UHGV virus genome: UHGV-0126570
Direction: 5' to 3' (one strand)
DNA from: a virus
DNA length: 59,916 nt
A program made the position numbers and the translations under genes. Below the pieces are notes generated by a model. The model saw nothing but the letters and a program-made list of their open reading frames with translations. It ran no database searches and was not told the DNA's origin. Of this stretch, positions 9,151 through 57,329 are shown piece by piece (within the stretch, counting starts at the first letter, position 1; the number at the start of each line of letters is the position of its first letter).

Positions 9151-9263
9151 CCGTTACATGAAGTTAAATTTCTAACATAGTGTATTTATATACACTGTTG
9201 ATCCTGTTCGATGTGATCGAGTAGGATCGCGGTCACTGCTCCGGTAGCGACTGCCAAAAAAGC

Positions 9264-27491: not shown

Positions 27492-28852
27492 GCCTTGTTA
27501 ATTGGGAAGAGCACCGCGCCAAATTTATAGCGTTGCGTGAAGAAAAAGGGATCACCGTAAAGGAATACTGCGAGCAACACGACCTTAGCTTCAATACCGC
27601 CAGAAAGCATCTCAATATGAAAAAAAATGAGGTGCGGTCGCAGGTGAAGACTACAAAAAAAAGCACCAAATCACCTGAAAAAAAACGGGCAGGAAGAGCA
27701 AAAAAAAGGCCAGAAGAGGGTACAGAAACAACAAAATTTACAGAAACTGACAATTCACAGAGCGGAAGTTCTTTCCGGAGCATGCCGAGAAAGAAAACTT
27801 CGGATCATAAAAATAACGACAATAATAACAATGAGATAAAAGAATCTGTCAGGAGATCATTGCGCGAAAAAATGGCGAAAATGATCCCCACCGAAGATAA
27901 ATGCGCCTCAAAAATCGAGGGATCTTCAGCAATGATCCCTGGCGGTGCTGTGCAGCGTGCCACGTTGCCCACTACGAGTGTGGCTCGCGACATGATGAAG
28001 AACGGCGCAGAAGAGCACCTGCGGTTAGCAATTCAAATGGCGCAAGAACGCGCACTTCAGTACCAAAGCATTGTTGATCAGGAGGCCGAACGCCTACAGG
28101 CGGAGATAGACGCCCTGGGTGATGAACAGCCAGAAGGAATGCACCCTGGGCAGCGACTTCTCGGTCTAATCAGTGACGCGGCCTACTACATGAACGATTT
28201 TATCAGTAGGTTGGCAGCGATATATCAGTCCGAACAAAAGCTGCGACAGGGTGATGAAAAACTTCGTCAGGGTGCTCGCCAGCAAGCATTCAGAGAGGCC
28301 GAGGCCAGAGAAAAACTCGAATTAGCACGCCTACAGGCCGAACAGCGTGGCAAAGAGATTGAATATCGCATTGGCGCTGACGCACGCGCAGCCAGAGTTA
28401 TCGCCGCCGCTATACGTATGCGTGAGCGCGAGGAGCTGGACGATATCGGTGTTGCTGAATACATCGAGCGTCAGGGTGTCAGTGTCCCGGCTATCCTCGC
28501 GGCGCGCGCGGCGAAAGCTATCACTCTTCTCGAACCTCCAGTTTCTGACATCAATGATGTTGATGATGAACAGCTGGACAAAGAAGCGAAGGAGTTTGCA
28601 TCGCTTCAGGCTAACCATCCGCAATGGCTGGCAGAGCGCCGGGCGGATGTGGCAACCATTGTTGAAGATCTGGGGTGCGGAGATTACGACCACAATGGCG
28701 AGCGTAAGGCTGGGGAATTCGAGGCCAACGATGAAGAGTTGGACATTGACCCTTCGGCAACGGCTGAAATTTACGGTGATTATGATGCATCAGATGCAGG
28801 GTATGACGCCGGAGATGATGATATTGCGATAGAACCGCCGGAGGATGACTAA
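27488..28852 (+). CDS. pacA: PacA-like terminase small subunit (pac-recognition protein)
   Basis: Immediately upstream of and overlapping (TAATG) the large-terminase gene; Lys-rich N-terminal region; contains a cluster of GATC hexamers. Assignment is by synteny with P1. Confidence 0.5.
   Translation: MSLVNWEEHRAKFIALREEKGITVKEYCEQHDLSFNTARKHLNMKKNEVRSQVKTTKKSTKSPEKKRAGRAKKRPEEGTETTKFTETDNSQSGSSFRSMPRKKTSDHKNNDNNNNEIKESVRRSLREKMAKMIPTEDKCASKIEGSSAMIPGGAVQRATLPTTSVARDMMKNGAEEHLRLAIQMAQERALQYQSIVDQEAERLQAEIDALGDEQPEGMHPGQRLLGLISDAAYYMNDFISRLAAIYQSEQKLRQGDEKLRQGARQQAFREAEAREKLELARLQAEQRGKEIEYRIGADARAARVIAAAIRMREREELDDIGVAEYIERQGVSVPAILAARAAKAITLLEPPVSDINDVDDEQLDKEAKEFASLQANHPQWLAERRADVATIVEDLGCGDYDHNGERKAGEFEANDEELDIDPSATAEIYGDYDASDAGYDAGDDDIAIEPPEDD
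27802..27938. other. Candidate pac site (cluster of Dam-methylatable hexamers)
   Basis: Five GATC within 135 bp inside the pacA 5' region: GGATCA 27802, AGATCA 27854, TGATCC 27882, GGATCT 27920, TGATCC 27933. P1 pac consists of clustered TGATCA/G hexamers inside pacA. Confidence 0.3.
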
Positions 28853-30360
28853 TGGCTGGTGGGCGCAAGATTAAATGCGTCACCAGCGATCCACGCTGGC
28901 GCGATATGGTAATCAAATACCGCTACAACTTTACCCAGGCTGTTGTTGATATATTCGGGATGTTTCCCTCCCACCAGCAGCAGGAGATTATCCAGTCCGT
29001 ACAGCAAAAAGGGAGCAGAACCACTGTTACCTCTGGTCACGGTACAGGGAAATCGTCGCTAACGGCTATGTTGTTGCTGATTTATTTGATTCTGTTCCCC
29101 GATGCCCGTGTCATCATTGTTGCTAACAAAATAGGTCAGGTTAAGACAGGTGTATTCAAATACGTTAAACAGTATTGGGCGAATGCCGTTAAGCGTCATG
29201 GGTGGTTACAGACCTATTTTGTCCTGTCTGACACCATGTTTTATGAACGCTCTCGAAAGGGGATCTGGGAAGTTCTCTGCAAAGGCTATCGACTCGGTAA
29301 CGAAGAAGCTCTGGCGGGGGAGCACGCGGCACATTTGCTTCTAATTCTGGATGAAGCATCAGGTATATCTGATAAAGCGATCGGCGTAATGACTGGCGCT
29401 CTGACTGAAGAAGATAACCGAATGTTGATGCTATCCCAGCCAACAAGGCCAAGTGGTTATTTCTACGATTCGCACCATTCTCAAGCTAAAACCCCAGACA
29501 ACCCGAAAGGGATCTGGACAGCAATTGTTCTTAACTCAGAAGAATCACCGTTCGTCACACCACAATTCATCAGGCAGAAACTCCTGGAATATGGCGGGCG
29601 CGATTCTATTGAGTACATGGCCAAGGTTCTTGGTCAGTTTCCTCGGGAGATTAACGGCTATTTGCTTGGTCGTGATGAATGCGATCGCGCTGCGCGGCGC
29701 AAGGTGTTGTTGGAGAAAAACTGGGGATGGGTGGCTACTGCTGACGTTGGTAACGGGCGAGACAAGTCAGTTCTTAATATCTGTAAAGTGTCTGGTCACC
29801 GGGAAAAGCGGCGTGTTGTTAACTTTAAGGTAATGGAAATGCCAGGGACTATGGACCCGCTGGCTTTTGCTGACTTTATATACAACGAATGCACGCCGGA
29901 TAAATACCCGAATATTACAATCGCGGTTGACGCAGACGGTTTTGGTTCAGATACCTGTGCGCAGCTGGTGCGCCGTGGGGCTAATCCGGTACGGATTCGG
30001 TGGGGGAAACCCATGTTTTCGAACAAAGACAAGGAGCGTTTTGTTAACCAGCGTGCCTACGCAAATATTATGGCTCGTGATGCCATAAAGTCAGGTCGTA
30101 TGCGAATAGACAGCGACCCTAAAACGGCAGAGCAAGCGTCAAAAATCCCCTTTTTACTTAATGAAGAAGGGAAGATGGCGATGATGCGCAAGGAGCACAT
30201 GCGGCAAAAGCTGAACATCAAATCACCTGACCGATGGGATACCTACTGCTTTACAATGCTGGTGGACTATGTTCCTGCTAATGAAGATATCGGCGCTGAA
30301 ATGGCTACCTTCCGCGATCAGGTTCTTGCAGATGTAGAAATGCCAGATCTGGATATTTGA
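28852..30360 (+). CDS. pacB: PacB-like terminase large subunit
   Basis: 502 aa; Walker A TSGHGTGKS, Walker B LLLILDEAS, C-terminal acidic nuclease-type motifs (ATADVGNGRD, AVDADGFG). Confidence 0.85.
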   Translation: MAGGRKIKCVTSDPRWRDMVIKYRYNFTQAVVDIFGMFPSHQQQEIIQSVQQKGSRTTVTSGHGTGKSSLTAMLLLIYLILFPDARVIIVANKIGQVKTGVFKYVKQYWANAVKRHGWLQTYFVLSDTMFYERSRKGIWEVLCKGYRLGNEEALAGEHAAHLLLILDEASGISDKAIGVMTGALTEEDNRMLMLSQPTRPSGYFYDSHHSQAKTPDNPKGIWTAIVLNSEESPFVTPQFIRQKLLEYGGRDSIEYMAKVLGQFPREINGYLLGRDECDRAARRKVLLEKNWGWVATADVGNGRDKSVLNICKVSGHREKRRVVNFKVMEMPGTMDPLAFADFIYNECTPDKYPNITIAVDADGFGSDTCAQLVRRGANPVRIRWGKPMFSNKDKERFVNQRAYANIMARDAIKSGRMRIDSDPKTAEQASKIPFLLNEEGKMAMMRKEHMRQKLNIKSPDRWDTYCFTMLVDYVPANEDIGAEMATFRDQVLADVEMPDLDI

Positions 30361-33301: not shown

Positions 33302-33774
33302 AAACTTATTACCCATCTCTGAATTGTTACCCGTCTTCCTATCCAGAATTATCCGGGAAGCTGTTAGCTCTATTAGCTAAAGCACCTACGGAATGGTTTA
33401 AGCCAGTCGTTATCAATCCACACTTCCTGGATTACGGATCTGTTCGCACTCGTAACGAACTCAAAAACCTACTGGCGCATGGATTCATTCGACACCGTGC
33501 CGGGAAAGGCTATCAGTTAGCGATTGCGCCAGAAGAGGCCGTGCGGCTATTCGCATATCGTGACAGCCAGACAAAAGCTCGGGTAATAGCTCAAATACTT
33601 CATAACGGCAGCACCTATGCCCGCCAGTTTGGCGGCGACACGTCGCAGTTCTTGCGGGCGGTGCGATCGCTGGAGGAGCAAGGAGTTATTGAAAGTTCCT
33701 GTCTTCCTGTTCCTACCGTTCCACATATCAAACGTCGGGTTTACACCTTCACGCAGAGAGCTAAAAAACAATGA
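33298..33774 (+). CDS. Hypothetical protein with winged-helix-like segments
   Basis: GTG start overlapping the upstream stop; two helix-turn-wing-like stretches (NLLAHGFIRHRAGKGYQLA, LRAVRSLEEQGVIES). Confidence 0.4.
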   Translation: MKTYYPSLNCYPSSYPELSGKLLALLAKAPTEWFKPVVINPHFLDYGSVRTRNELKNLLAHGFIRHRAGKGYQLAIAPEEAVRLFAYRDSQTKARVIAQILHNGSTYARQFGGDTSQFLRAVRSLEEQGVIESSCLPVPTVPHIKRRVYTFTQRAKKQ

Positions 33775-34265
33775 TTTACGTAAAAGTGAAACGCCTACAT
33801 CCGGCAGCAAAACTTCCAGCTTATGCCACCTCCGGATCGGCGGCGATGGATTTTGAGGCTGTTGAAATAAAACCATGCGTCGATAGCAATGGTGCAATTT
33901 CCTCAAGCTGGTGGGTGTATACCGGACTGGCTATGGAGATCCCGCCCGGCTGGTGTCTGAAACTCTATCCGCGATCAGGATTGGGCTGCAAAAAACATAC
34001 TCGCCTGGCTAACTGCGTAGGAATTATCGACTCCGATTATCGCGGCGAAATCATGGCAAAACTGATTACTGATCCAGGCGGGGAAGGCGTTTGTCTCAAG
34101 CCTGGAATGGCTGTCATGCAAGGAATTTTTGAGCGTGTTGAACAAGTCTCACTAGTCGAGGTTGAGGAACTCAACGAAACGGAGCGTGGTGCTGGTGGCT
34201 TTGGTAGCACATCGGAAGGCCACTTTGAAATTAAGCGTTCACCGCTTCAGTACGAAAAGTTATAA
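33771..34265 (+). CDS. dut: dUTP diphosphatase (trimeric dUTPase)
   Basis: Motifs AAMDF, RSGLG, GIIDSDYRGEI, ERGAGGFGSTS in canonical order. Confidence 0.85.
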   Translation: MIYVKVKRLHPAAKLPAYATSGSAAMDFEAVEIKPCVDSNGAISSSWWVYTGLAMEIPPGWCLKLYPRSGLGCKKHTRLANCVGIIDSDYRGEIMAKLITDPGGEGVCLKPGMAVMQGIFERVEQVSLVEVEELNETERGAGGFGSTSEGHFEIKRSPLQYEKL

Positions 34266-34279
34266 GCAGAGAAAAGACT

Positions 34280-34957
34280 ATGAATAACAAGCCAACGAAA
34301 GAGCTTTTTAAGCTCCTTCCCAAATACAAAGCTCACAAAAACGTTAGTGCATCGAAAATCAAAAATGTTGTTATTTTCGGAGTAACTGATACCCCACTTT
34401 GGGGCAGCATCGAACTCGTTGAACCTAAAGGGGCAACAGTTTGTGTTGACGCAATGTTTTTACAAAAACACCGACCAAAAACTGGCGGGTATCTGATCGT
34501 TTATGAAAACGGTTATCTGTTCTATGCCCCGGAGAAACCATTTGAGGAACGCTATGGCCTGGTTAACGACGCCTCCAAAAATGGAACCACGGTCATCATT
34601 ACGGATGACAACGGCGAGATGATTAATCTTACCGGGAGCGTAACTATTTCTGCTGGTGGCATCACCACCCAGCAAGAAGAAATCGACCTTGAAGCAGCCG
34701 ACTTTTCTGACGCGCTGATGTGGCTGAAGGATGGCAAGAAAGTTGCTCGACGCGGGTGGAACGGCGAAAACCAATTTTGCTGGCTGGTTCCTGAAGGACA
34801 GTACCCGGCACGAATGGAAGCCATTAAGGGATATTTCCCCGGCGACCTCGTTCCGTATGGTGCTTATTTCGCCTTAAAAAATGCACAAGGTGTAGTTGTT
34901 CCGTGGGTGCCTTCAGTTGGCGACCTGCTGGCCTGTGACTGGTTTGTTGTGGAGTGA
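34280..34957 (+). CDS. Fusion protein: unknown N-terminal domain plus C-terminal DUF2829-like (Tad2-like) domain
   Basis: C-terminal DALMWLKDGKKVARRGWNGENQFCWLVPEG ... VVPWVPSVGDLLACDWFVVE follows the DUF2829 signature (A..W.K.GKKV.RRGWNG ... PW.pS..DLLA.DW.vvE) as recalled from memory. Confidence 0.45.
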   Translation: MNNKPTKELFKLLPKYKAHKNVSASKIKNVVIFGVTDTPLWGSIELVEPKGATVCVDAMFLQKHRPKTGGYLIVYENGYLFYAPEKPFEERYGLVNDASKNGTTVIITDDNGEMINLTGSVTISAGGITTQQEEIDLEAADFSDALMWLKDGKKVARRGWNGENQFCWLVPEGQYPARMEAIKGYFPGDLVPYGAYFALKNAQGVVVPWVPSVGDLLACDWFVVE

Positions 34958-34963
34958 TTTGAC

Positions 34964-35731
34964 ATGGAAAGCACTAAAACAATTCAATACCGCTTGCGTA
35001 ATGGCCTGCTGGTGGCTGTTAACGCCGACATGTCACTGCCGTTTGACACGATTGAACGCACTATCATGACGTATCTCGGCTTTAATGAAGAGCTGAATGA
35101 AGAGCATGGCGTAGCTATATGGAGTGATGCAGACAGCGGCGTTCGTCGTTACATCACCGCCAGGGGCAAAGACTACTCTCTGGATGAACTGTTTGCCCTT
35201 GCGCAGTCTTTCGAATGTGTAGCATTAGACCTGTTTAATGATCCTGCTATAGCGCAACGACTTATACGCGAGCTTGGGCTATCCGTTACACCAATTATAT
35301 TTAAAAATGGCAGCCTGACTGGCACATGGCGCGTAGAACGCATCTCAAACTACCTTCCATATAACCGACAGTTAAATGGAGTAATCTCCGGCGTTAATCA
35401 GCCCGTAGCGTGTGAAAATGTAAACCTAGTTGTCGCTGTTTTGGCAACCGCATGTCGTGTTATCGGTTTGGCTAAACAGGCATTTATTCATTTCCCAAAT
35501 GGTGCAGAAGGTAGCGCAGAGATTATCGCGTGTGATTTCGAATTTACCTGGATGCTACGCGAATATCTGGACCAAACAGTATTCCGTGCCGAAGAACTGG
35601 ATATGTATATCACGTCAACGATTCCAGACGATGTGCGAGCTGAAGCAATCGCTACAGCCAGGGCGAAATGCCGTGCGGCGATTGCAGAACAGGCCAAAGA
35701 AGAAGTTAAGGAAGTGGCAGATGGCGACTAA
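34964..35731 (+). CDS. Hypothetical protein (255 aa), partner of the terminase paralog
   Basis: Translationally coupled to the downstream TerL-like gene; no similarity to PacA. Confidence 0.45.
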   Translation: MESTKTIQYRLRNGLLVAVNADMSLPFDTIERTIMTYLGFNEELNEEHGVAIWSDADSGVRRYITARGKDYSLDELFALAQSFECVALDLFNDPAIAQRLIRELGLSVTPIIFKNGSLTGTWRVERISNYLPYNRQLNGVISGVNQPVACENVNLVVAVLATACRVIGLAKQAFIHFPNGAEGSAEIIACDFEFTWMLREYLDQTVFRAEELDMYITSTIPDDVRAEAIATARAKCRAAIAEQAKEEVKEVADGD

Positions 35732-36815
35732 GAGCAATATTTATAAAGATCCGCGCTGGCTGTCGCTGGTGGAGAAATATAAAGACAATTGGGTACTGGC
35801 AGCAAAAGAATTGTTTGATATTGATTTAAGCCACCAGCAACAACAAATTGTTGAAGCTATACAGCCCAATAATGCAAAAGCTACTGTCACCACTCCGTAT
35901 GGGATCGGACGACCGCAAGTGCTTGCTGTTATTAGTACCCTTTATACGATTATGTATCCTGATTCCCGGACAGTAATTGTTTATCCAAAATCAAATGTTT
36001 GCAAAAGAGGAATTGTTGCATATGTGTGGCAATGTTGGGAGGCATTGCTGAAAAAACAACCTTTTATCATTGAGTATTTTAAGGTCGGTGATAGCGGTCT
36101 GATGTTCAATGAATTTTGGGGAATGTGCTTTTGTAACTACCGCCTTAACTATGAAGATAGCATTGCAGGTCACTACGCCGACCATCTTTTATTCATTATT
36201 GTGGATTCCGCACATATCAGCGATCGGGCATACAGCATTGTGTGGGCAAGCATGACTAGTGGTGATTCACGCATATTGCTCACTTCAATTCCGTCACCAG
36301 AGGAAATAGGCTTTTTTTATGATTCACATCATGGACGTGCTTTAGCTGAAGATAATCCGAGTGGTGTATATAAAGCCATTAAGCTGAGCGCGGAGGATTC
36401 ACCATTTATTACCCAAGAATATCTTGATCATTTTGCCGAAAGGTATGGCGGGCGAAATAGTGATGACTATCGTCGTATGATTCTTGGTGAGTTCCCTGGT
36501 ATTAGGGAGGCTGTTCTTGAATCAGATATGCCGAAGACAATGCGCTTTTCGATGCCTGATGGTAGTGAATGGACAATGCCATTACGAGTGATAGCCCGGC
36601 ATCATGCGCAGCACCACGCCAAAAAACATGGCGTCACGACATTAGAATGGTTGAAATCGCACACTATTCCACTCTTCACTGCAGATCACAATGCTATCGT
36701 TGAGTGGGCAAAAACAATTCCGTGGGAGCATGTCGCTGAATATGCTCACATGCTAAAACCGCCGAAAGACAGGCGCGAAATTAGCTGGCTGACAGCCGAA
36801 AAAATCATTGAATGA
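35721..36815 (+). CDS. Terminase large-subunit (PacB) N-domain paralog with degenerate Walker A/B and no nuclease domain
   Basis: Aligns with PacB residues ~10-300 (DPRW..., SHQQQ, FYDSHH, SPF, YGGR, FP), but Walker A is TTPYGIGRP instead of TSGHGTGKS and Walker B LLFIIVDSAH instead of LLLILDEAS; protein ends after ~364 aa. Confidence 0.6.
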   Translation: MATKSNIYKDPRWLSLVEKYKDNWVLAAKELFDIDLSHQQQQIVEAIQPNNAKATVTTPYGIGRPQVLAVISTLYTIMYPDSRTVIVYPKSNVCKRGIVAYVWQCWEALLKKQPFIIEYFKVGDSGLMFNEFWGMCFCNYRLNYEDSIAGHYADHLLFIIVDSAHISDRAYSIVWASMTSGDSRILLTSIPSPEEIGFFYDSHHGRALAEDNPSGVYKAIKLSAEDSPFITQEYLDHFAERYGGRNSDDYRRMILGEFPGIREAVLESDMPKTMRFSMPDGSEWTMPLRVIARHHAQHHAKKHGVTTLEWLKSHTIPLFTADHNAIVEWAKTIPWEHVAEYAHMLKPPKDRREISWLTAEKIIE

Positions 36816-36860: not shown

Positions 36861-37250
36861 TTAAATCACAGGTCTATAATCAAACTCCCCACTTCGGGCA
36901 TCATTAATGACATGAGTGATCACACCAAAAACAGCATTACTGCCCGTGTATCCATCGTCATCCACTGGTAACGCCTCTTTCTTCCCGGTGCTTAAATCCT
37001 CCAGGTGCTGGCGCGGATACTTCCTGTATCTCTTTATGCGATATTCACCCTCCATAGCGCATATAAGCAGTGAACCATCAACCGGAGTAAGTGAGGAATC
37101 AACCACCAGCAAAGCACCTTGCAATATTCCCTCACGGTGATGGCTGTCTGCCGCCCGCATGAAGTAGGTCGCGGAAGGATGTCTGATTAGTTGCTGATCA
37201 AGAGAAATGCGGCTCTCTGCATAATCCGCCGCAGGAGAAGGGAAGCCCAT
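36861..37250 (-). CDS. humD: UmuD/HumD-like S24 peptidase
   Basis: S24 LexA/UmuD C-terminal domain pattern (GILQGALLVVD...GEYRIKRY) in a 129-aa protein. Confidence 0.75.
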   Translation of the reverse strand: MGFPSPAADYAESRISLDQQLIRHPSATYFMRAADSHHREGILQGALLVVDSSLTPVDGSLLICAMEGEYRIKRYRKYPRQHLEDLSTGKKEALPVDDDGYTGSNAVFGVITHVINDARSGEFDYRPVI

Positions 37251-40144: not shown

Positions 40145-40404
40145 TACCGCACCTCCAGTCTCCATACCGCCTGACCAATCCGGCTGGCATAGGTATCTTT
40201 GGATACTGCTCCGTCTTTAGCCAGCTCCATAAGAATTTTGCGCAAATCTGCCGAACGCCATTCTTCATCAGGAAATTCCTTCTCCATTGCCAACCGCAGA
40301 TTCCAGGTTGCTATCGTGAATGGATATTCCCCGCCGAGAGCTTTCTCTTGCAGGGCAGAACGGGAACGCATCACCTGCAAAACCTTCTCTTTTACATCCA
40401 TCAT
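40144..40404 (-). CDS. Hypothetical protein (86 aa)
   Basis: ORF with ATGA coupling to neighbours. Confidence 0.35.
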   Translation of the reverse strand: MMDVKEKVLQVMRSRSALQEKALGGEYPFTIATWNLRLAMEKEFPDEEWRSADLRKILMELAKDGAVSKDTYASRIGQAVWRLEVR

Positions 40405-41057
40405 TTTGCCTCCTGCGGCGGTTCTGGTAGTGGCATCCAGTGTGTGACATTGCTAATCAGACCATATTCATTAGTTTGAGGATGGTTGCCGTTATCGTCT
40501 CCGTATTTAAGACTCTCCATAAAACCATAATGCTTATTCCCATTAACGCTCACAAAGCCGTAATAAGCTGGTATAACGCCGATCTCACACGTAATCAGCA
40601 AAGGAAAACTAGTTCTCCAATTTAGCTCGCCGATTACAGGCATTCTCTCACTACAGCTTATCCAACTATCCTGAGTTACCGGAGAGTTGCCCGATAGCTG
40701 GTTCAACTTGTAAGTTTGGCTTACAGGTTCGGCTTTCAGTTCTGCTATGCGCTTTTTTGCTGCTTCCAGCTCAACGCGCAGCTTCCCTACCGTTAGCGCA
40801 ATATCCTCGTTCTCCTGGTCGCGGAGTTTGATGTATTGCTGGTTTTTTTCCCGTTCATCCAGTAGTGCCAAAGCAACCTTTGGATTAAAGGCAGCAATAA
40901 ATTCAGCGTTGTTTTTCAGAACGTGTTGCGCAATGGCCTGACTACTTAGTCGGACCTCATAACCACGTGCGCCACGGTGTGGTTTATATGAGTCCCAGTC
41001 TCCCCACGTTGCTTTCTCTGCCGCCTCACGCAGTGCCTGGTAATTAATTTCGCTCAC
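40401..41057 (-). CDS. Ea22-like protein with C-terminal DUF551-like motif
   Basis: N-terminal MSEINYQALREAAEKAT (Ea22-type), coiled coil, C-terminal THWMPLPEPP. Confidence 0.5.
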   Translation of the reverse strand: MSEINYQALREAAEKATWGDWDSYKPHRGARGYEVRLSSQAIAQHVLKNNAEFIAAFNPKVALALLDEREKNQQYIKLRDQENEDIALTVGKLRVELEAAKKRIAELKAEPVSQTYKLNQLSGNSPVTQDSWISCSERMPVIGELNWRTSFPLLITCEIGVIPAYYGFVSVNGNKHYGFMESLKYGDDNGNHPQTNEYGLISNVTHWMPLPEPPQEAK

Positions 41058-41641
41058 TGGTTGCCTCCTTTGCGAAGCTGTTCAGCAATACTTACGCATA
41101 TCTCTGCGCCTCTAATCAGCCCCGGAACGTTCTTGTTTGGCCCAACTTCACCATCAACAAAATCAATCATCGCGTTACGAGCCATATCCACCCCCTGCGC
41201 ACGTACTTCAGCCAGGAGAGCGTCGGTAGCTGGGGTTTCCGTGAAGTTGTCCTCCCAACCGTAGTACTCCTGACGACAGAAGTTATTAAATTCCTTCTCC
41301 GACTGTTTAAGCGCCGCATTCTCCACTGCCAGCGCCGCGCACTTGGCCTCAAGAGCGGCAACCACTTCCTGATGGTCTTTGTACTTAACGTATGAGCCGG
41401 AGATGTCATCACCTTCGGTGTTTAGCCATGCGTCATTGCAATTCACTGCGTAGGTTCTGATGCTGATGCTCTCCCGCCCCTGACAGACGCCAGGCCAGTC
41501 AATAAAGTATCCGCAATGCCTACCTTCAGACGTGCGCGCAGGATAAATGCCGTTATGACCCGGCAAAATATATGCTACCCATTCATCTTGCGTTGCCTGT
41601 TCCGCCGCCTCGCGCAGTTCTTGATAGTTAATTTTGCTCAC
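41054..41641 (-). CDS. Ea22-like protein (paralog)
   Basis: N-terminal MSKINYQELREAAEQAT; C-terminal ...LLAEVRAQG...AEQLRKGGNQ shared with the 44216-44926 product. Confidence 0.5.
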   Translation of the reverse strand: MSKINYQELREAAEQATQDEWVAYILPGHNGIYPARTSEGRHCGYFIDWPGVCQGRESISIRTYAVNCNDAWLNTEGDDISGSYVKYKDHQEVVAALEAKCAALAVENAALKQSEKEFNNFCRQEYYGWEDNFTETPATDALLAEVRAQGVDMARNAMIDFVDGEVGPNKNVPGLIRGAEICVSIAEQLRKGGNQ

Positions 41642-43948: not shown

Positions 43949-44219
43949 TTGCTTTCTCCTGTCGGAACATCACGATCATCAGGTCACCTTTTGTCGCTAT
44001 CCTGGCTGTTGTGCCAGGCTCAATGCGGCTAAGTTCAAATGCGTCATAGAACGCCTCTAACGCTTTCTGGCGTCTCTCCTGTTTGCGGCGCTTTCCCCAC
44101 TGCTTTAGAAAAACAGAGGCCGCCCACTTCCCCGCACTGAACATGATGTAAAACCAACCGAGCAGGGCCAAACCTGTGTTGAGGGCCGTATCGAGCGTTA
44201 TCGTGGTGTCGATATTCAC
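43926..44219 (-). CDS. Small membrane protein
   Basis: Hydrophobic helix LALLGWFYIMFSAGKWAASVFL followed by a basic tail. Confidence 0.4.
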   Translation of the reverse strand: MNIDTTITLDTALNTGLALLGWFYIMFSAGKWAASVFLKQWGKRRKQERRQKALEAFYDAFELSRIEPGTTARIATKGDLMIVMFRQEKANGSKAND

Positions 44220-44926
44220 TGATTGCCCCCTTCCCTAAGCTGTTCTGCACAATGCAGCAGCGCACCTGTCGCATCTTTAAGCGTCACTAGCTCGTCATCA
44301 TCCAGTCCTACTCCCCTCGCGTCCCTGACAAACGCCGCGCAAAGGTCGTTAAACGCCCCCGCCCGCACTTCAGCCAGGAAAGCGCCAGTAGCAGGGGTGT
44401 CAATGCAAACACTGTCACGAAGGATGAAGAACGCATTAAGCATTCCTCTTTCTGGTACATCGTCCTGGCATTCCTCATATGCAACCAATGCATCCATCAT
44501 TTTCTGACCGAATTGCTGAGGGTGTGCAGATTTCAGTGCTATATTCTCCGCCGCCAGCGTCGCGCGATTGCTCTCCAGTTCTGCAATGCGCTGTTTTGCG
44601 GCATCAAGTTCAATCGACAATTTTTCCAACTGCTCTTTATGCTTTTTGTATGCCTGATATGCGTGCCAAGACTGTCCTTTGCGCACACTTTCAGTAATAT
44701 CAGAAATCTGTTCTGGTGTTAGCGTGGTCAGTGGCTGCGCTGGGGAAATCAGCACTTTCCCGGAATCCCAATCAAAACCAGCGTGAATTGACTGAACCTC
44801 AACTGAGGGTGTTGAACCAATGCTGCCAGGCGAATGAACAACGATCGTTACATCCATATCGCGACGATGGCTGTGGTTGTTGGACAAAATACGATTCACC
44901 AACTCAGAAAATTTGGAAAATTTCAT
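44216..44926 (-). CDS. Ea22-like mosaic protein (paralog)
   Basis: Start moved to the ATG at 44926 (ATGA overlap with the upstream stop). Coiled coil [14 protein letters not shown] and C-terminal ...FLAEVRAG...[10 protein letters not shown] shared with 41054-41641. Confidence 0.45.
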
Positions 44927-45285
44927 GCTGATTCCCTTTGCTCTTCCTGGATAATGTTGTTGCAATCTTTCACGCACTCGTTGCAGATGAAAACGTTGTC
45001 CCCGGCAATTAACTTTTTAACGGTGTGCTGGGATTTGTTGCAGAAGCTGCAATAAAGCGTTGAACTTGCTGATACGGATGGTGCGCCAGATGTCAGCCGC
45101 GCGATGTCGTTCTTGCGACGCAATATCACACGGCTGCACTCGACCAGCATCTCCGGGGATATCTTCTCCTCCGTAGCGAGCGTTTCTAATCGTTCGAGTA
45201 TGTGGAAGGCTTTTTCCTGGGTAATCCTGGGTAATTCAGCGTTACGCTCTGCCAGTTGTGCGGGCGTTAAACCTTCAGACTTCAT
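44923..45285 (-). CDS. Small protein with ClpX-type C4 zinc finger
   Basis: C-terminal [36 protein letters not shown] closely resembles the ClpX N-terminal zinc-binding domain. Confidence 0.55.
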
Positions 45286-45592
45286 ACACTCTCCTTTCGA
45301 AATAAACGTACTGATTAATCATGCCCAGGGGCATTTCGAGTTTTTCCGCGATCTCACGGCGGGGAACACCACACTGATGAAGCTGCCGTGCCAGTTCTAT
45401 ATCGCTCTGCCGGTATTTGGCTGACGGATGAAAGTCTCCTTTCAGAATCATGCTGATCCCCAGCTCCCGCGCTTTGGTCCTGACGGCATCACCGGTACGA
45501 CCGATCAGCTTCCCAATACTCTCTACCGTCATAGTTCCGGCGCACTGGCGGAGTATCATGATTTCTGCCCTTCCCCATCCCCGCCAGCTCAC
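45275..45592 (-). CDS. HTH protein (105 aa)
   Basis: Two helix-turn-helix-like stretches ([22 protein letters not shown]; [18 protein letters not shown]). Confidence 0.35.
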
Positions 45593-46239
45593 GCCGACAT
45601 CCTCTGAGACATAAACTCCACAAAACGAACTGCATCTTCAGAAACAACGCCGCATGACTTCAGATAATTCATTGCGTCATTAGGTAGCGGATTAGTTGGT
45701 TCGGCATTTGCCAGGGATTGAGATAAACGCGTGATTAATTTGACCATTCTCCGCTGCCGGAGGTTGTATCCTTCAGCTAAAGACAGGTAACTGGAAAGGG
45801 TATTGCTTAAGCGGGCGCGAAGCTGATCCGTGCCGTGACATTCAATAGCAACATCACGTAACGCATCGACCAGTTCACGGTAAAGATGCGCTGCCATTCT
45901 GCAATCTGTGTCAGATGGTGCTTCATAAATTACCGTCAACCCCAGTTTTTCAGCCAGAGCGTGTTCTGCACGTGCTCCTGCGGACACATCCCATCCCTTA
46001 AGCAGATAGATCGCATCAGCAGAACGCACCATTGCCAGGCAAATATCCATGTATTCACTCTGACAAAGGCCACCAGGTAACACAGCTGGATTCAGAACGA
46101 TATGCCCTTCAGCCATCAGCTCGCTCGCTTTCGCATTAAACGCCGCACGGTTGTAATCTGGATAACCAGTCATCGGCCCCGCGATGTAAATTTTCAAAAC
46201 ACGTTTCACCATCAAAATTTCCCCAAAATCGTGACGCAA
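45589..46239 (-). CDS. DUF4406-like (nucleoside 2-deoxyribosyltransferase-like) protein with C-terminal extension
   Basis: N-terminal KIYIAGPMTGYPDYNRAAF...LNPA...IYLLKGWDVSAGARAEHALAEKLGL matches the DUF4406 pattern; ~100-aa C-terminal extension. Confidence 0.45.
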   Translation of the reverse strand: MRHDFGEILMVKRVLKIYIAGPMTGYPDYNRAAFNAKASELMAEGHIVLNPAVLPGGLCQSEYMDICLAMVRSADAIYLLKGWDVSAGARAEHALAEKLGLTVIYEAPSDTDCRMAAHLYRELVDALRDVAIECHGTDQLRARLSNTLSSYLSLAEGYNLRQRRMVKLITRLSQSLANAEPTNPLPNDAMNYLKSCGVVSEDAVRFVEFMSQRMSA

Positions 46240-46406
46240 AACATAAGCACTGCGAAAAGCTCAATACCAAGCTCAAGTAGCGCCAACGCCCCGAAAAACA
46301 ACACATAGAACAGGCCAATTTCATTCACAGATGGCTGGTGGATCGCACTTAAAGCTATAAGCATCATGTCCTCCAAACAGTTATCAGGAATGATATTAAT
46401 GTTTTG

Positions 46407-46436
46407 TGTTAGAAAATCAATTTTGAATATCTAACA
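46407..46436. promoter_or_regulatory. Palindromic operator-like element TGTTAGA-N16-TCTAACA in a divergent promoter region
   Basis: Between the minus-strand operon start (46239) and the plus-strand Ref-like gene (46485). Confidence 0.5.
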
Positions 46437-57285: not shown

Positions 57286-57329
57286 CCAATTGTGTTAGAT
57301 AATTGAATAGAATTTTCTAACACAATTGG
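57286..57329. promoter_or_regulatory. Extended palindromic operator-like element CCAATTGTGTTAGA-N16-TCTAACACAATTGG
   Basis: Near-perfect 14-bp inverted arms, 7 bp upstream of the rdgC start codon. Confidence 0.55.

Follow-up and report, generated by a model that had tools for sequence, protein, structure and literature searches.

The N-terminal domain of ClpX, a zinc-binding domain (ZBD), forms a dimer that docks SspB, RssB, TF and lambda O on a hydrophobic region including F16 and I46, and lambda O is not degraded when this domain is missing (PMC7804408). The ZBD is required for the degradation of lambda O and of RssB/sigma-S and not for that of ssrA-tagged proteins (PMC7804408, PMC7226468, PMC5415555), and free ZBD provided in trans at 5-20 uM inhibits the RssB-mediated breakdown of sigma-S by 0.6 uM ClpXP (PMC7226468, Fig. 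1d). Phages are known to interfere with host proteolysis by means of small proteins such as T7 gp4.5 and T4 PinA, which target Lon, and lambda RexB, which affects ClpP-dependent degradation, and the P1 antitoxin Phd is a known substrate of ClpXP (PMC10286901, and cited therein for Phd). We have analysed a stretch of viral DNA of 59,916 nucleotides (nt) from the UHGV virus genome UHGV-0126570, hereafter the window, in which an earlier note had pointed to a 120-residue protein encoded at 44923-45285. The gene was found there on the minus strand (44923..45285), complete from its ATG start to its stop codon, and its product consists of a two-helix hairpin followed by a ClpX-type ZBD. The reading that we favour, at a probability of about 0.45, is that this hairpin-ZBD protein acts in trans as a soluble decoy for ligands that depend on the N-domain of ClpX.

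The protein's C-terminal domain is a genuine ClpX-type ZBD, a treble clef that spans residues 77-115 (44941..45057, minus strand) and is recovered by Pfam, by searches of PDB, by alignment and by structural modelling. Pfam family PF06689 (zf-C4_ClpX) matches residues 78-114 over model positions 2-39 of 39 with 63.8 bits, where the gathering threshold is 27 (E=1.3e-17), a phmmer search of the PDB sequences rendered ClpX chains only, with the E. coli ZBD (1ovx/2ds5) as the best of them (E of ca. 1e-15), and 28 of the 39 core residues are identical to those of the ZBD of E. coli ClpX. The predicted zinc ligands C79, C82, C101 and C104 correspond to C14, C17, C36 and C39 of ClpX, with the spacing C-x2-C-x18-C-x2-C, and the residues of the docking pocket are kept as F81 (ClpX F16) and I111 (ClpX I46). 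Substitutions with respect to ClpX include N83 (for G18), T88 (E23), D96 (P31), F99 (Y34) and D107 (L42), all of them typical of the subfamily. In an AlphaFold2 model that took the alignment of the family as its input, and which is a prediction only, the domain overlays 2ds6, 2ds5 and 2ds8 at 0.6-0.7 Å over 38 residues with 71% identity according to Foldseek; when 1ovx is included, the root-mean-square deviation ranges from 0.6 to 1.5 Å, the target-normalised template modelling score from 0.76 to 0.91 and the identity from 64 to 72%. The resemblance to the ClpX ZBD proposed in the earlier note is therefore confirmed by four concordant lines of evidence (Pfam, phmmer against PDB, the alignment of 39 residues and the structural overlay). 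A generic zinc ribbon is ruled out, since it is the ClpX ZBD that is specifically matched, with LIM, RING and ribosomal zinc-ribbon hits all at E>0.6, and the equivalents of the four cysteines and of F16 and I46 are present. Where the same note had the protein end with the ZBD peptide, that peptide corresponds to residues 77-112 and is followed by eight further residues (QEEQRESA), the last five of which form an acidic tail (QRESA, residues 116-120) that occupies 44923..44940 (minus strand) together with the stop codon.

The similarity to ClpX ends with this domain. A full ClpX unfoldase is ruled out, as TIGR00382 and NF003745 give 46.9 and 42.9 bits, respectively, where the cut-offs are 359 and 370, and match residues 74-118 only; with the AAA+ module absent, the protein cannot itself unfold anything. 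No defence model of PADLOC matched at E<=0.01, and no second copy of the ZBD gene was found within the window. The appearance of the gene in "two places" in some plasmids corresponds to 50 nt at the 5' end of the donor gene of the chimeric leader described below.

Upstream of the ZBD, the unrelated domain of about 70 residues that had been expected is not a single domain and comprises three parts, all encoded on the minus strand: a chimeric leader (residues 1-20, 45226..45285), modelled with a predicted local distance difference test score (pLDDT) of 55-59; a conserved two-helix hairpin (residues 21-66, 45088..45225) with helices at residues 23-39 and 44-65 (pLDDT ca. 80-94); and a linker rich in Ser, Ala and Pro (residues 67-76, 45058..45087), which is of low confidence in the model and differs in length among members of the family. 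The signature of the hairpin includes LVEC..V.LRRK.DI..L. A search of 1.84 billion (1.84e9) cluster representatives with a hairpin profile matched 19 proteins, of which the intact ones all end in a ZBD and the rest are truncated or frameshifted, so that no hairpin in a context without a ZBD was found in that set. Sequence and structural searches of Pfam, PDB and BFVD rendered no match to the hairpin either. The hairpin-ZBD combination is an obligate, lineage-restricted architecture. Two possible affiliations of the hairpin were discarded: it is not an XB-like ClpX-binding motif, since LRRK/LRRE does not fit the LKxh consensus (PMC7226468) and falls within a confidently modelled helix, and kinship with the anti-adaptor IraP is ruled out by an hhalign probability of 0.4%.

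The leader is peculiar to this allele. Canonical members of the family have about 107 residues and start with MTTSHSA (MTTSHSAITQEKAF...), whereas the first ca. 17 codons of the gene in the window are the start of a separate gene for a coiled-coil protein of 169 residues present in relatives. In NZ_CP027309, that coiled-coil gene lies between the DNA-binding and the Ea22-like genes, upstream of the gene for the ClpX-type zinc finger; a deletion of 1.15 kb joined its start in frame to the zinc-finger gene, with the junction at 45226-45236. The leader exemplifies the fast shuffling by deletion and recombination that takes place within the accessory operon. The same deletion took out an Ea22-like gene that is present in NZ_CP027309.

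The protein belongs to a phage family of unassigned function, PHROG 6797, which matches residues 16-119 over positions 3-106 of a profile of 107 (E=3.1e-54). Members of the family occur in 241 of 5426 complete E. coli genomes (ca. 4%), at 172 places in plasmids and 103 in chromosomes, as well as in 132 plasmids of PLSDB; 478 relatives were found in IMG/VR, and the hairpin-ZBD open reading frame (ORF) is intact in 79 of the 80 viral loci examined. Three phage backbones carry the family: P1-like, P2-like and lambdoid. Type A is the one of the window, D6 and lambdoid prophages, where it lies among Ea22-like, DUF4752 and DUF4406 genes, usually with stop and start codons that overlap. In type B, that of the P2-like phage P88 and a UTI89 prophage, the gene always comes after those for a replication endonuclease, parM and parR, with coupling to a conserved ORF of 111 residues, and type C is a rare and distant subfamily. 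Whatever the context, the gene is part of an early operon, with replication or partition functions beside it and small accessory genes around it. ZBDs without the hairpin were also found in unrelated phages, namely D3-like Pseudomonas phages (65 residues) and the T4-like Caulobacter phage Cr30 (an ORF of ca. 70 residues), and in Bacillus phage G a full ClpX/ClpP pair takes the place of a detached ZBD. The ORF of Cr30 (locus L089, 1486-1725) seems to be under-annotated, with a coding sequence of 41 residues called at 1600-1725 and the ZBD match running from 1501.

The naming of these genes in databases has varied. The RefSeq entry WP_140903071 ('ClpX C4-type zinc finger protein'), from a Salmonella plasmid, is identical in sequence to the protein of the window, and in RefSeq the gene takes its name from the domain alone. 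Homologs such as D6 orf93 (locus L001, 6312-6632) and P88 gp19 (locus L004, 5001-5333), and many entries of the nr database, carry the older label 'carboxylate--amine ligase'. No ATP-grasp or ligase domain corresponds to that label, the sole Pfam domain in this protein of 120 residues being zf-C4_ClpX, and the label looks like a propagated misannotation that has been replaced in newer RefSeq records.

Comparison of types A and B gave a ratio of nonsynonymous to synonymous substitution rates (dN/dS) of 0.23-0.33 overall and 0.28-0.40 in the ZBD, with the synonymous sites of the hairpin saturated, and the hairpin-ZBD family is under purifying selection. Among close relatives the ratio in the ZBD is around 1, a value that is uninterpretable with ca. 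4 synonymous changes per pair and the variable tail included. The DNA encoding the ZBD is 60% identical to clpX of strain K-12, and the codons for conserved residues are the same at 14 of 29 positions and different at 15, which indicates that the domain is not a recent pick-up of clpX; recent capture of the host gene is ruled out on this account. The enterobacterial ClpX signature AGPSVYIC...VDLCN is retained in types B and C, whose identities with the E. coli ZBD go up to 34 of 39, and these features are consistent with descent of the ZBD from an enterobacterial clpX. The same data bear on the possibility that the gene is a non-functional remnant of the 5' end of a captured clpX, or even an artefact of gene calling. 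That the allele of the window is visibly a deletion chimera, in a mosaic region made up of small accessory genes, would go along with such a remnant, but it is hardly credible for a frame that is intact in all but one of the viral loci, with a dN/dS well under 1 over long distances, so low an identity to clpX at the DNA level, a two-domain architecture kept in three phage backbones, a strong Shine-Dalgarno (SD) sequence and translational coupling; even the chimeric allele of 120 residues is itself intact in several plasmids.

When 33 distinct ZBDs of the family were compared column by column with 28 distinct ZBDs of genuine ClpX proteins, the four zinc cysteines, C43 and F16 were invariant in both sets. 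G30, I35, V40 and further residues of the core never vary in the family and vary hardly or not at all in ClpX, and the position of I46 is occupied by I or V in the family. Since the ZBD has been kept and the AAA+ module is absent, the protein is most simply viewed as a competitor for ligands of the N-domain. A detached and soluble copy of the docking domain, which would bind zinc and dimerise like its ClpX counterpart, would be made from the early accessory operon and would compete with the ClpX hexamer for those proteins that are obliged to dock on the N-domain. Candidate targets would include the adaptors SspB and RssB, initiators of the lambda O type, MuA, FtsZ and dimers of the UmuD/UmuD' type. 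Captured ligands would be kept off the protease, so that N-domain-dependent proteolysis by ClpXP would be selectively lowered, and degradation by direct recognition at the pore, as for ssrA-type substrates, would be spared. Two-helix hairpins usually self-associate as four-helix bundles, and the hairpin could in this manner provide higher valency and avidity; alternatively, it could touch one given client at a second point. The competition for adaptors and substrates of ClpX that the earlier note envisaged thus finds an in vitro precedent in the free ZBD and is favoured by the conserved pocket, but it is weakened by the drift of four sites that are conserved in ClpX.

This drift is the first of several points that count against a decoy. 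Sites that are near-invariant in ClpX are changed in most ZBDs of the family, chiefly those of type A, with G18 replaced by N or K, E23 by A or T, P31 by D or E, and L42 by V, A or D, and L42, which is Asp in the protein of the window, sits one helical turn from I46. Given these changes the pocket may have been remodelled, with a set of ligands differing from that of ClpX, and because of the four drifted positions (G18N, E23T, P31D, L42D) a ligand specificity identical to that of ClpX cannot be assumed. In addition, the isolated ZBD binds its ligands weakly, micromolar amounts having been needed in vitro, so that an effective decoy would require high expression, added avidity, or both, and each of these is an assumption. 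The role of the hairpin is purely inferred, neither a homolog nor a structural analog having been found for it. No client is identifiable from the gene context, in which phd/doc is absent and the flanking genes are functionally unassigned, and a literature search on phage ZBD proteins, ClpX inhibitors and residue maps of the ZBD retrieved no functional study of a phage-encoded or stand-alone ZBD protein.

With respect to the clients, the repressors and antitoxins that had been put forward as targets are not supported. The phd/doc and higBA genes of a Salmonella relative have no match anywhere in the window, and the P2-like and lambdoid carriers of the family lack the P1 addiction module. A link to the P1 Phd/Doc module is therefore ruled out, and Phd cannot be the client here. 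As a guess, the replication initiators that are encoded beside it in lambdoid and P2-like surroundings could be clients. Host UmuD and UmuD' dimers are clients of ClpXP that are tethered via the ClpX N-domain. The window encodes at 36861-37250 (minus strand) a HumD-like S24 peptidase of 129 residues, an analog of UmuD', and it is conceivable, again as a guess, that this protein is a client of the ZBD decoy.

A different use of the same domain would be recruitment, in which the phage ZBD pairs with, or docks on, the N-domain of ClpX and tethers a cargo bound by the hairpin, so that the protein would work as an adaptor that accelerates degradation. The N-domains of ClpX are dimeric, the phage ZBD retains core residues such as V40, C43 and I47, some members of the family share up to 34 of 39 residues with the E. 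coli ZBD, and an obligate hairpin makes sense as a cargo-binding module. Against this, the ClpX ZBD dimer is said, from the 2003 work of Wojtyra and Donaldson, to be very stable, so that exchange of subunits with a free monomer would not be expected; moreover, L42 and P31, which are changed in the subfamily of the window, may be at or near the interface, and no candidate for the cargo is evident. We consider recruitment to be quite unlikely, and the heterodimerisation with ClpX that the earlier note suggested finds no support.

It could also be that the protein has nothing to do with ClpX, the treble clef having been re-purposed for binding a peptide, a protein or a nucleic acid within the phage, with ClpXP unaffected; it might for instance regulate the co-translated Ea22-like protein or the adjacent DNA-binding protein. 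The zf-C4_ClpX domain is found elsewhere as an accessory module, e.g., in cyanobacterial sigma factors (PMC11119718), genes of type A are coupled to Ea22-like genes and those of type B to the conserved ORF of 111 residues, and the subfamily-specific substitutions lie on the surface. Nevertheless, the F16/I46 pocket is kept across all subfamilies, and the ZBD is still 72-87% identical to that of host ClpX in spite of saturated synonymous divergence. The flanking partner varies by subfamily, which implies that there is no conserved phage partner, and a surface with the basic signature of DNA binding is absent, the tail being acidic. A role independent of ClpX is therefore possible but unlikely, and the decoy for N-domain ligands remains the reading that we prefer.

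The gene forms part of a leftward operon. Its SD sequence (AAGGAG, 45291..45296, minus strand) lies 5 nt 5' of the ATG, inside the 3' end of an upstream gene for a small DNA-binding protein (45275..45592, minus strand; PHROG 323, 'transcriptional regulator, D5-like'), with which the hairpin-ZBD gene overlaps by 11 nt. The next gene (44216..44926, minus strand) begins with an ATG that shares bases with the TGA stop codon of the hairpin-ZBD gene (ATGA), an overlap that implies translational coupling. This downstream gene encodes a coiled-coil protein of 236 residues that is labelled in RefSeq records of relatives as ead/Ea22-like or hypothetical, and for which a Pfam search gave no match. First in the operon is an ORF for a very hydrophobic protein of about 50 residues (MMLIALSAIHQPSVNEIGLFYVLFFGALALLELGIELFAVLMFCVTILGKF; 46212-46376, minus strand) with its own GGAGG SD, followed by a gene for a DUF4406 protein (45589..46212, minus strand). 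The stop codon of the hydrophobic ORF, a counterpart of D6 orf88, overlaps the start of the DUF4406 gene (TGATG). Two paralogs of the Ead/Ea22-like type are confirmed by Pfam on the minus strand, at 40401-41057 (one fused to DUF551) and 41054-41641, and the coiled-coil gene at 44216-44926 would be a third in the same leftward accessory region, Ea22-like only by the labels of its relatives; Ea22-like genes are the steadiest neighbours of the zinc-finger genes of type A.

A 14-nt motif, TGTTAGAAAAYYAA, may be relevant to the expression of the operon. It occurs 15 times in the window with up to 2 mismatches, against 1.8 occurrences expected, and its extended consensus is approximately ATGTTAGAAAAYTAATTT; the sites are found in either orientation and nearly always in intergenic regions, at 9164, 10368, 21314, 22565, 22721, 27007, 31484, 31662, 32885, 42979, 46407-46436, 47060, 50456 and 57293-57322. 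A looser pattern rendered 17 sites, 15 of them wholly outside ORFs of at least 100 residues, which cover 76% of the window. Two of the sites, 46407-46436 and 57293-57322, are palindromic double sites. The first is located between the divergent ref gene and the operon, overlaps a weak promoter for the operon (TTGATT-N16-TAATAT), and is conserved in D6 (locus L001, 8763-8792) and in two related plasmids. In P1, ref is under the control of a double operator, Op2a,b. The sequence ATTGCTCTAATAAATTT, which we take to be the consensus of the P1 C1 operator, has no match in the window at up to 3 mismatches. By analogy with ref in P1, the double site is probably an operator for a C1-type repressor of the D6 group, and the motif as a whole probably its set of operators, which differs from the P1 consensus. 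If this is so, the operon would be repressed in the prophage and expressed early after derepression, and the strong SD and the candidate operator-controlled promoter would fit a burst of expression at that stage. TGTTAGAAAAYYAA could also be an element of late promoters, although its sites do not follow the orientation of the genes.

The phage origin of the gene, which the earlier note had assumed, is evident from the rest of the window, which carries genes for a portal, a PacA/PacB terminase, a DarB-like protein of 2304 residues, a Cre-type recombinase, Ant and tail proteins, in addition to ref, and corresponds to a P1/D6-like phage-plasmid. The region is syntenic with phage D6 (89% identity) and with non-mobilizable Escherichia and Salmonella plasmids of 78-93 kb (93-98%). 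Where pdcA-doc-phd is found in the Salmonella relative, the window has an ORF of 365 residues (35718-36815, plus strand) that matches PHROG 5902 (E=4e-164), the family of the N-terminal part of the PacB-like subunit encoded at 28852-30360; on the basis of this match, it is classified as a second PacB-like paralog, shorter than the first. Right behind a dUTPase gene (33771-34265), an ORF at 34280-34957 (plus strand, 225 residues) encodes a protein with a C-terminal domain resembling Tad2 (Thoeris anti-defence 2; PF11195, 80 bits), and this is likely an anti-defence gene of the phage-plasmid.

ClpXP governs a number of decisions that matter to phages, including the turnover of lambda O, of the Mu transposase and repressor and of P1 Phd, as well as that of sigma-S, UmuD' and FtsZ. 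If phages do use a receptor decoy of this kind, it would stabilise phage replication or partition proteins, sigma-S, or labile antitoxins whose loss would otherwise trigger abortive infection. It would represent a new and mechanistically transparent way of editing the range of substrates of a protease without shutting it off, and would provide a ready-made tool to separate in vivo the N-domain-dependent from the pore-dependent degradation by ClpXP. The family is common, given its presence in ca. 4% of complete E. coli genomes and in many P1-like plasmids that spread resistance genes as well. The finding, if true, would be conceptually neat, although it would not startle a specialist in ClpXP.

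With the ZBD of host ClpX the phage domain shares the fold, the predicted zinc site and the F16/I46 pocket, with 28 of 39 residues identical in the window and up to 34 of 39 elsewhere in the family; unlike it, the phage ZBD lacks the AAA+ motor, is C-terminal instead of N-terminal, follows an orphan hairpin and, in the subfamily of the window, bears the changes G18N, E23T, P31D, Y34F and L42D. The isolated ClpX ZBD used as a competitor is likewise free of the motor, and its block of RssB/sigma-S degradation is the very activity proposed here for the phage protein (PMC7226468), but it is a laboratory construct identical to the host domain, whereas the phage protein is the product of a diverged natural gene with a predicted activity. 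T7 gp4.5, T4 PinA and lambda RexB are also small phage proteins, and an early damping of a host ATP-dependent protease is what is proposed in the present case; they have no kinship with the hairpin-ZBD protein in sequence or fold, and they hit the protease, whereas the phage ZBD would mimic its docking domain. The route by which RexB affects ClpP-dependent degradation is unclear. The anti-adaptors of RssB, namely IraP, IraM and IraD, are comparable in being small, in some cases horizontally acquired, and in stabilising a substrate of ClpXP by intercepting its adaptor, but they have no ZBD and no similarity to the hairpin-ZBD protein. Comparable in design are the stand-alone ZBDs of other phages (PHROG 12435, labelled 'protease', PHROG 5259, and those of D3-like phages and Cr30), which are motor-free ZBDs of the ClpX type encoded in early or nin-like regions, and which differ in lacking the hairpin and in showing 38-46% identity over the matched ZBD by tblastn. 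Taking these together, we would tentatively suggest that temperate and lytic phages of enteric bacteria, Pseudomonas and Caulobacter have repeatedly detached the docking domain of ClpX as a soluble 'receptor decoy' against ClpXP, to which the enteric hairpin would add multivalency or specificity for a client. What is new with respect to the systems described so far is a known docking domain that is borne by a phage, off its motor, and fused to an orphan hairpin.

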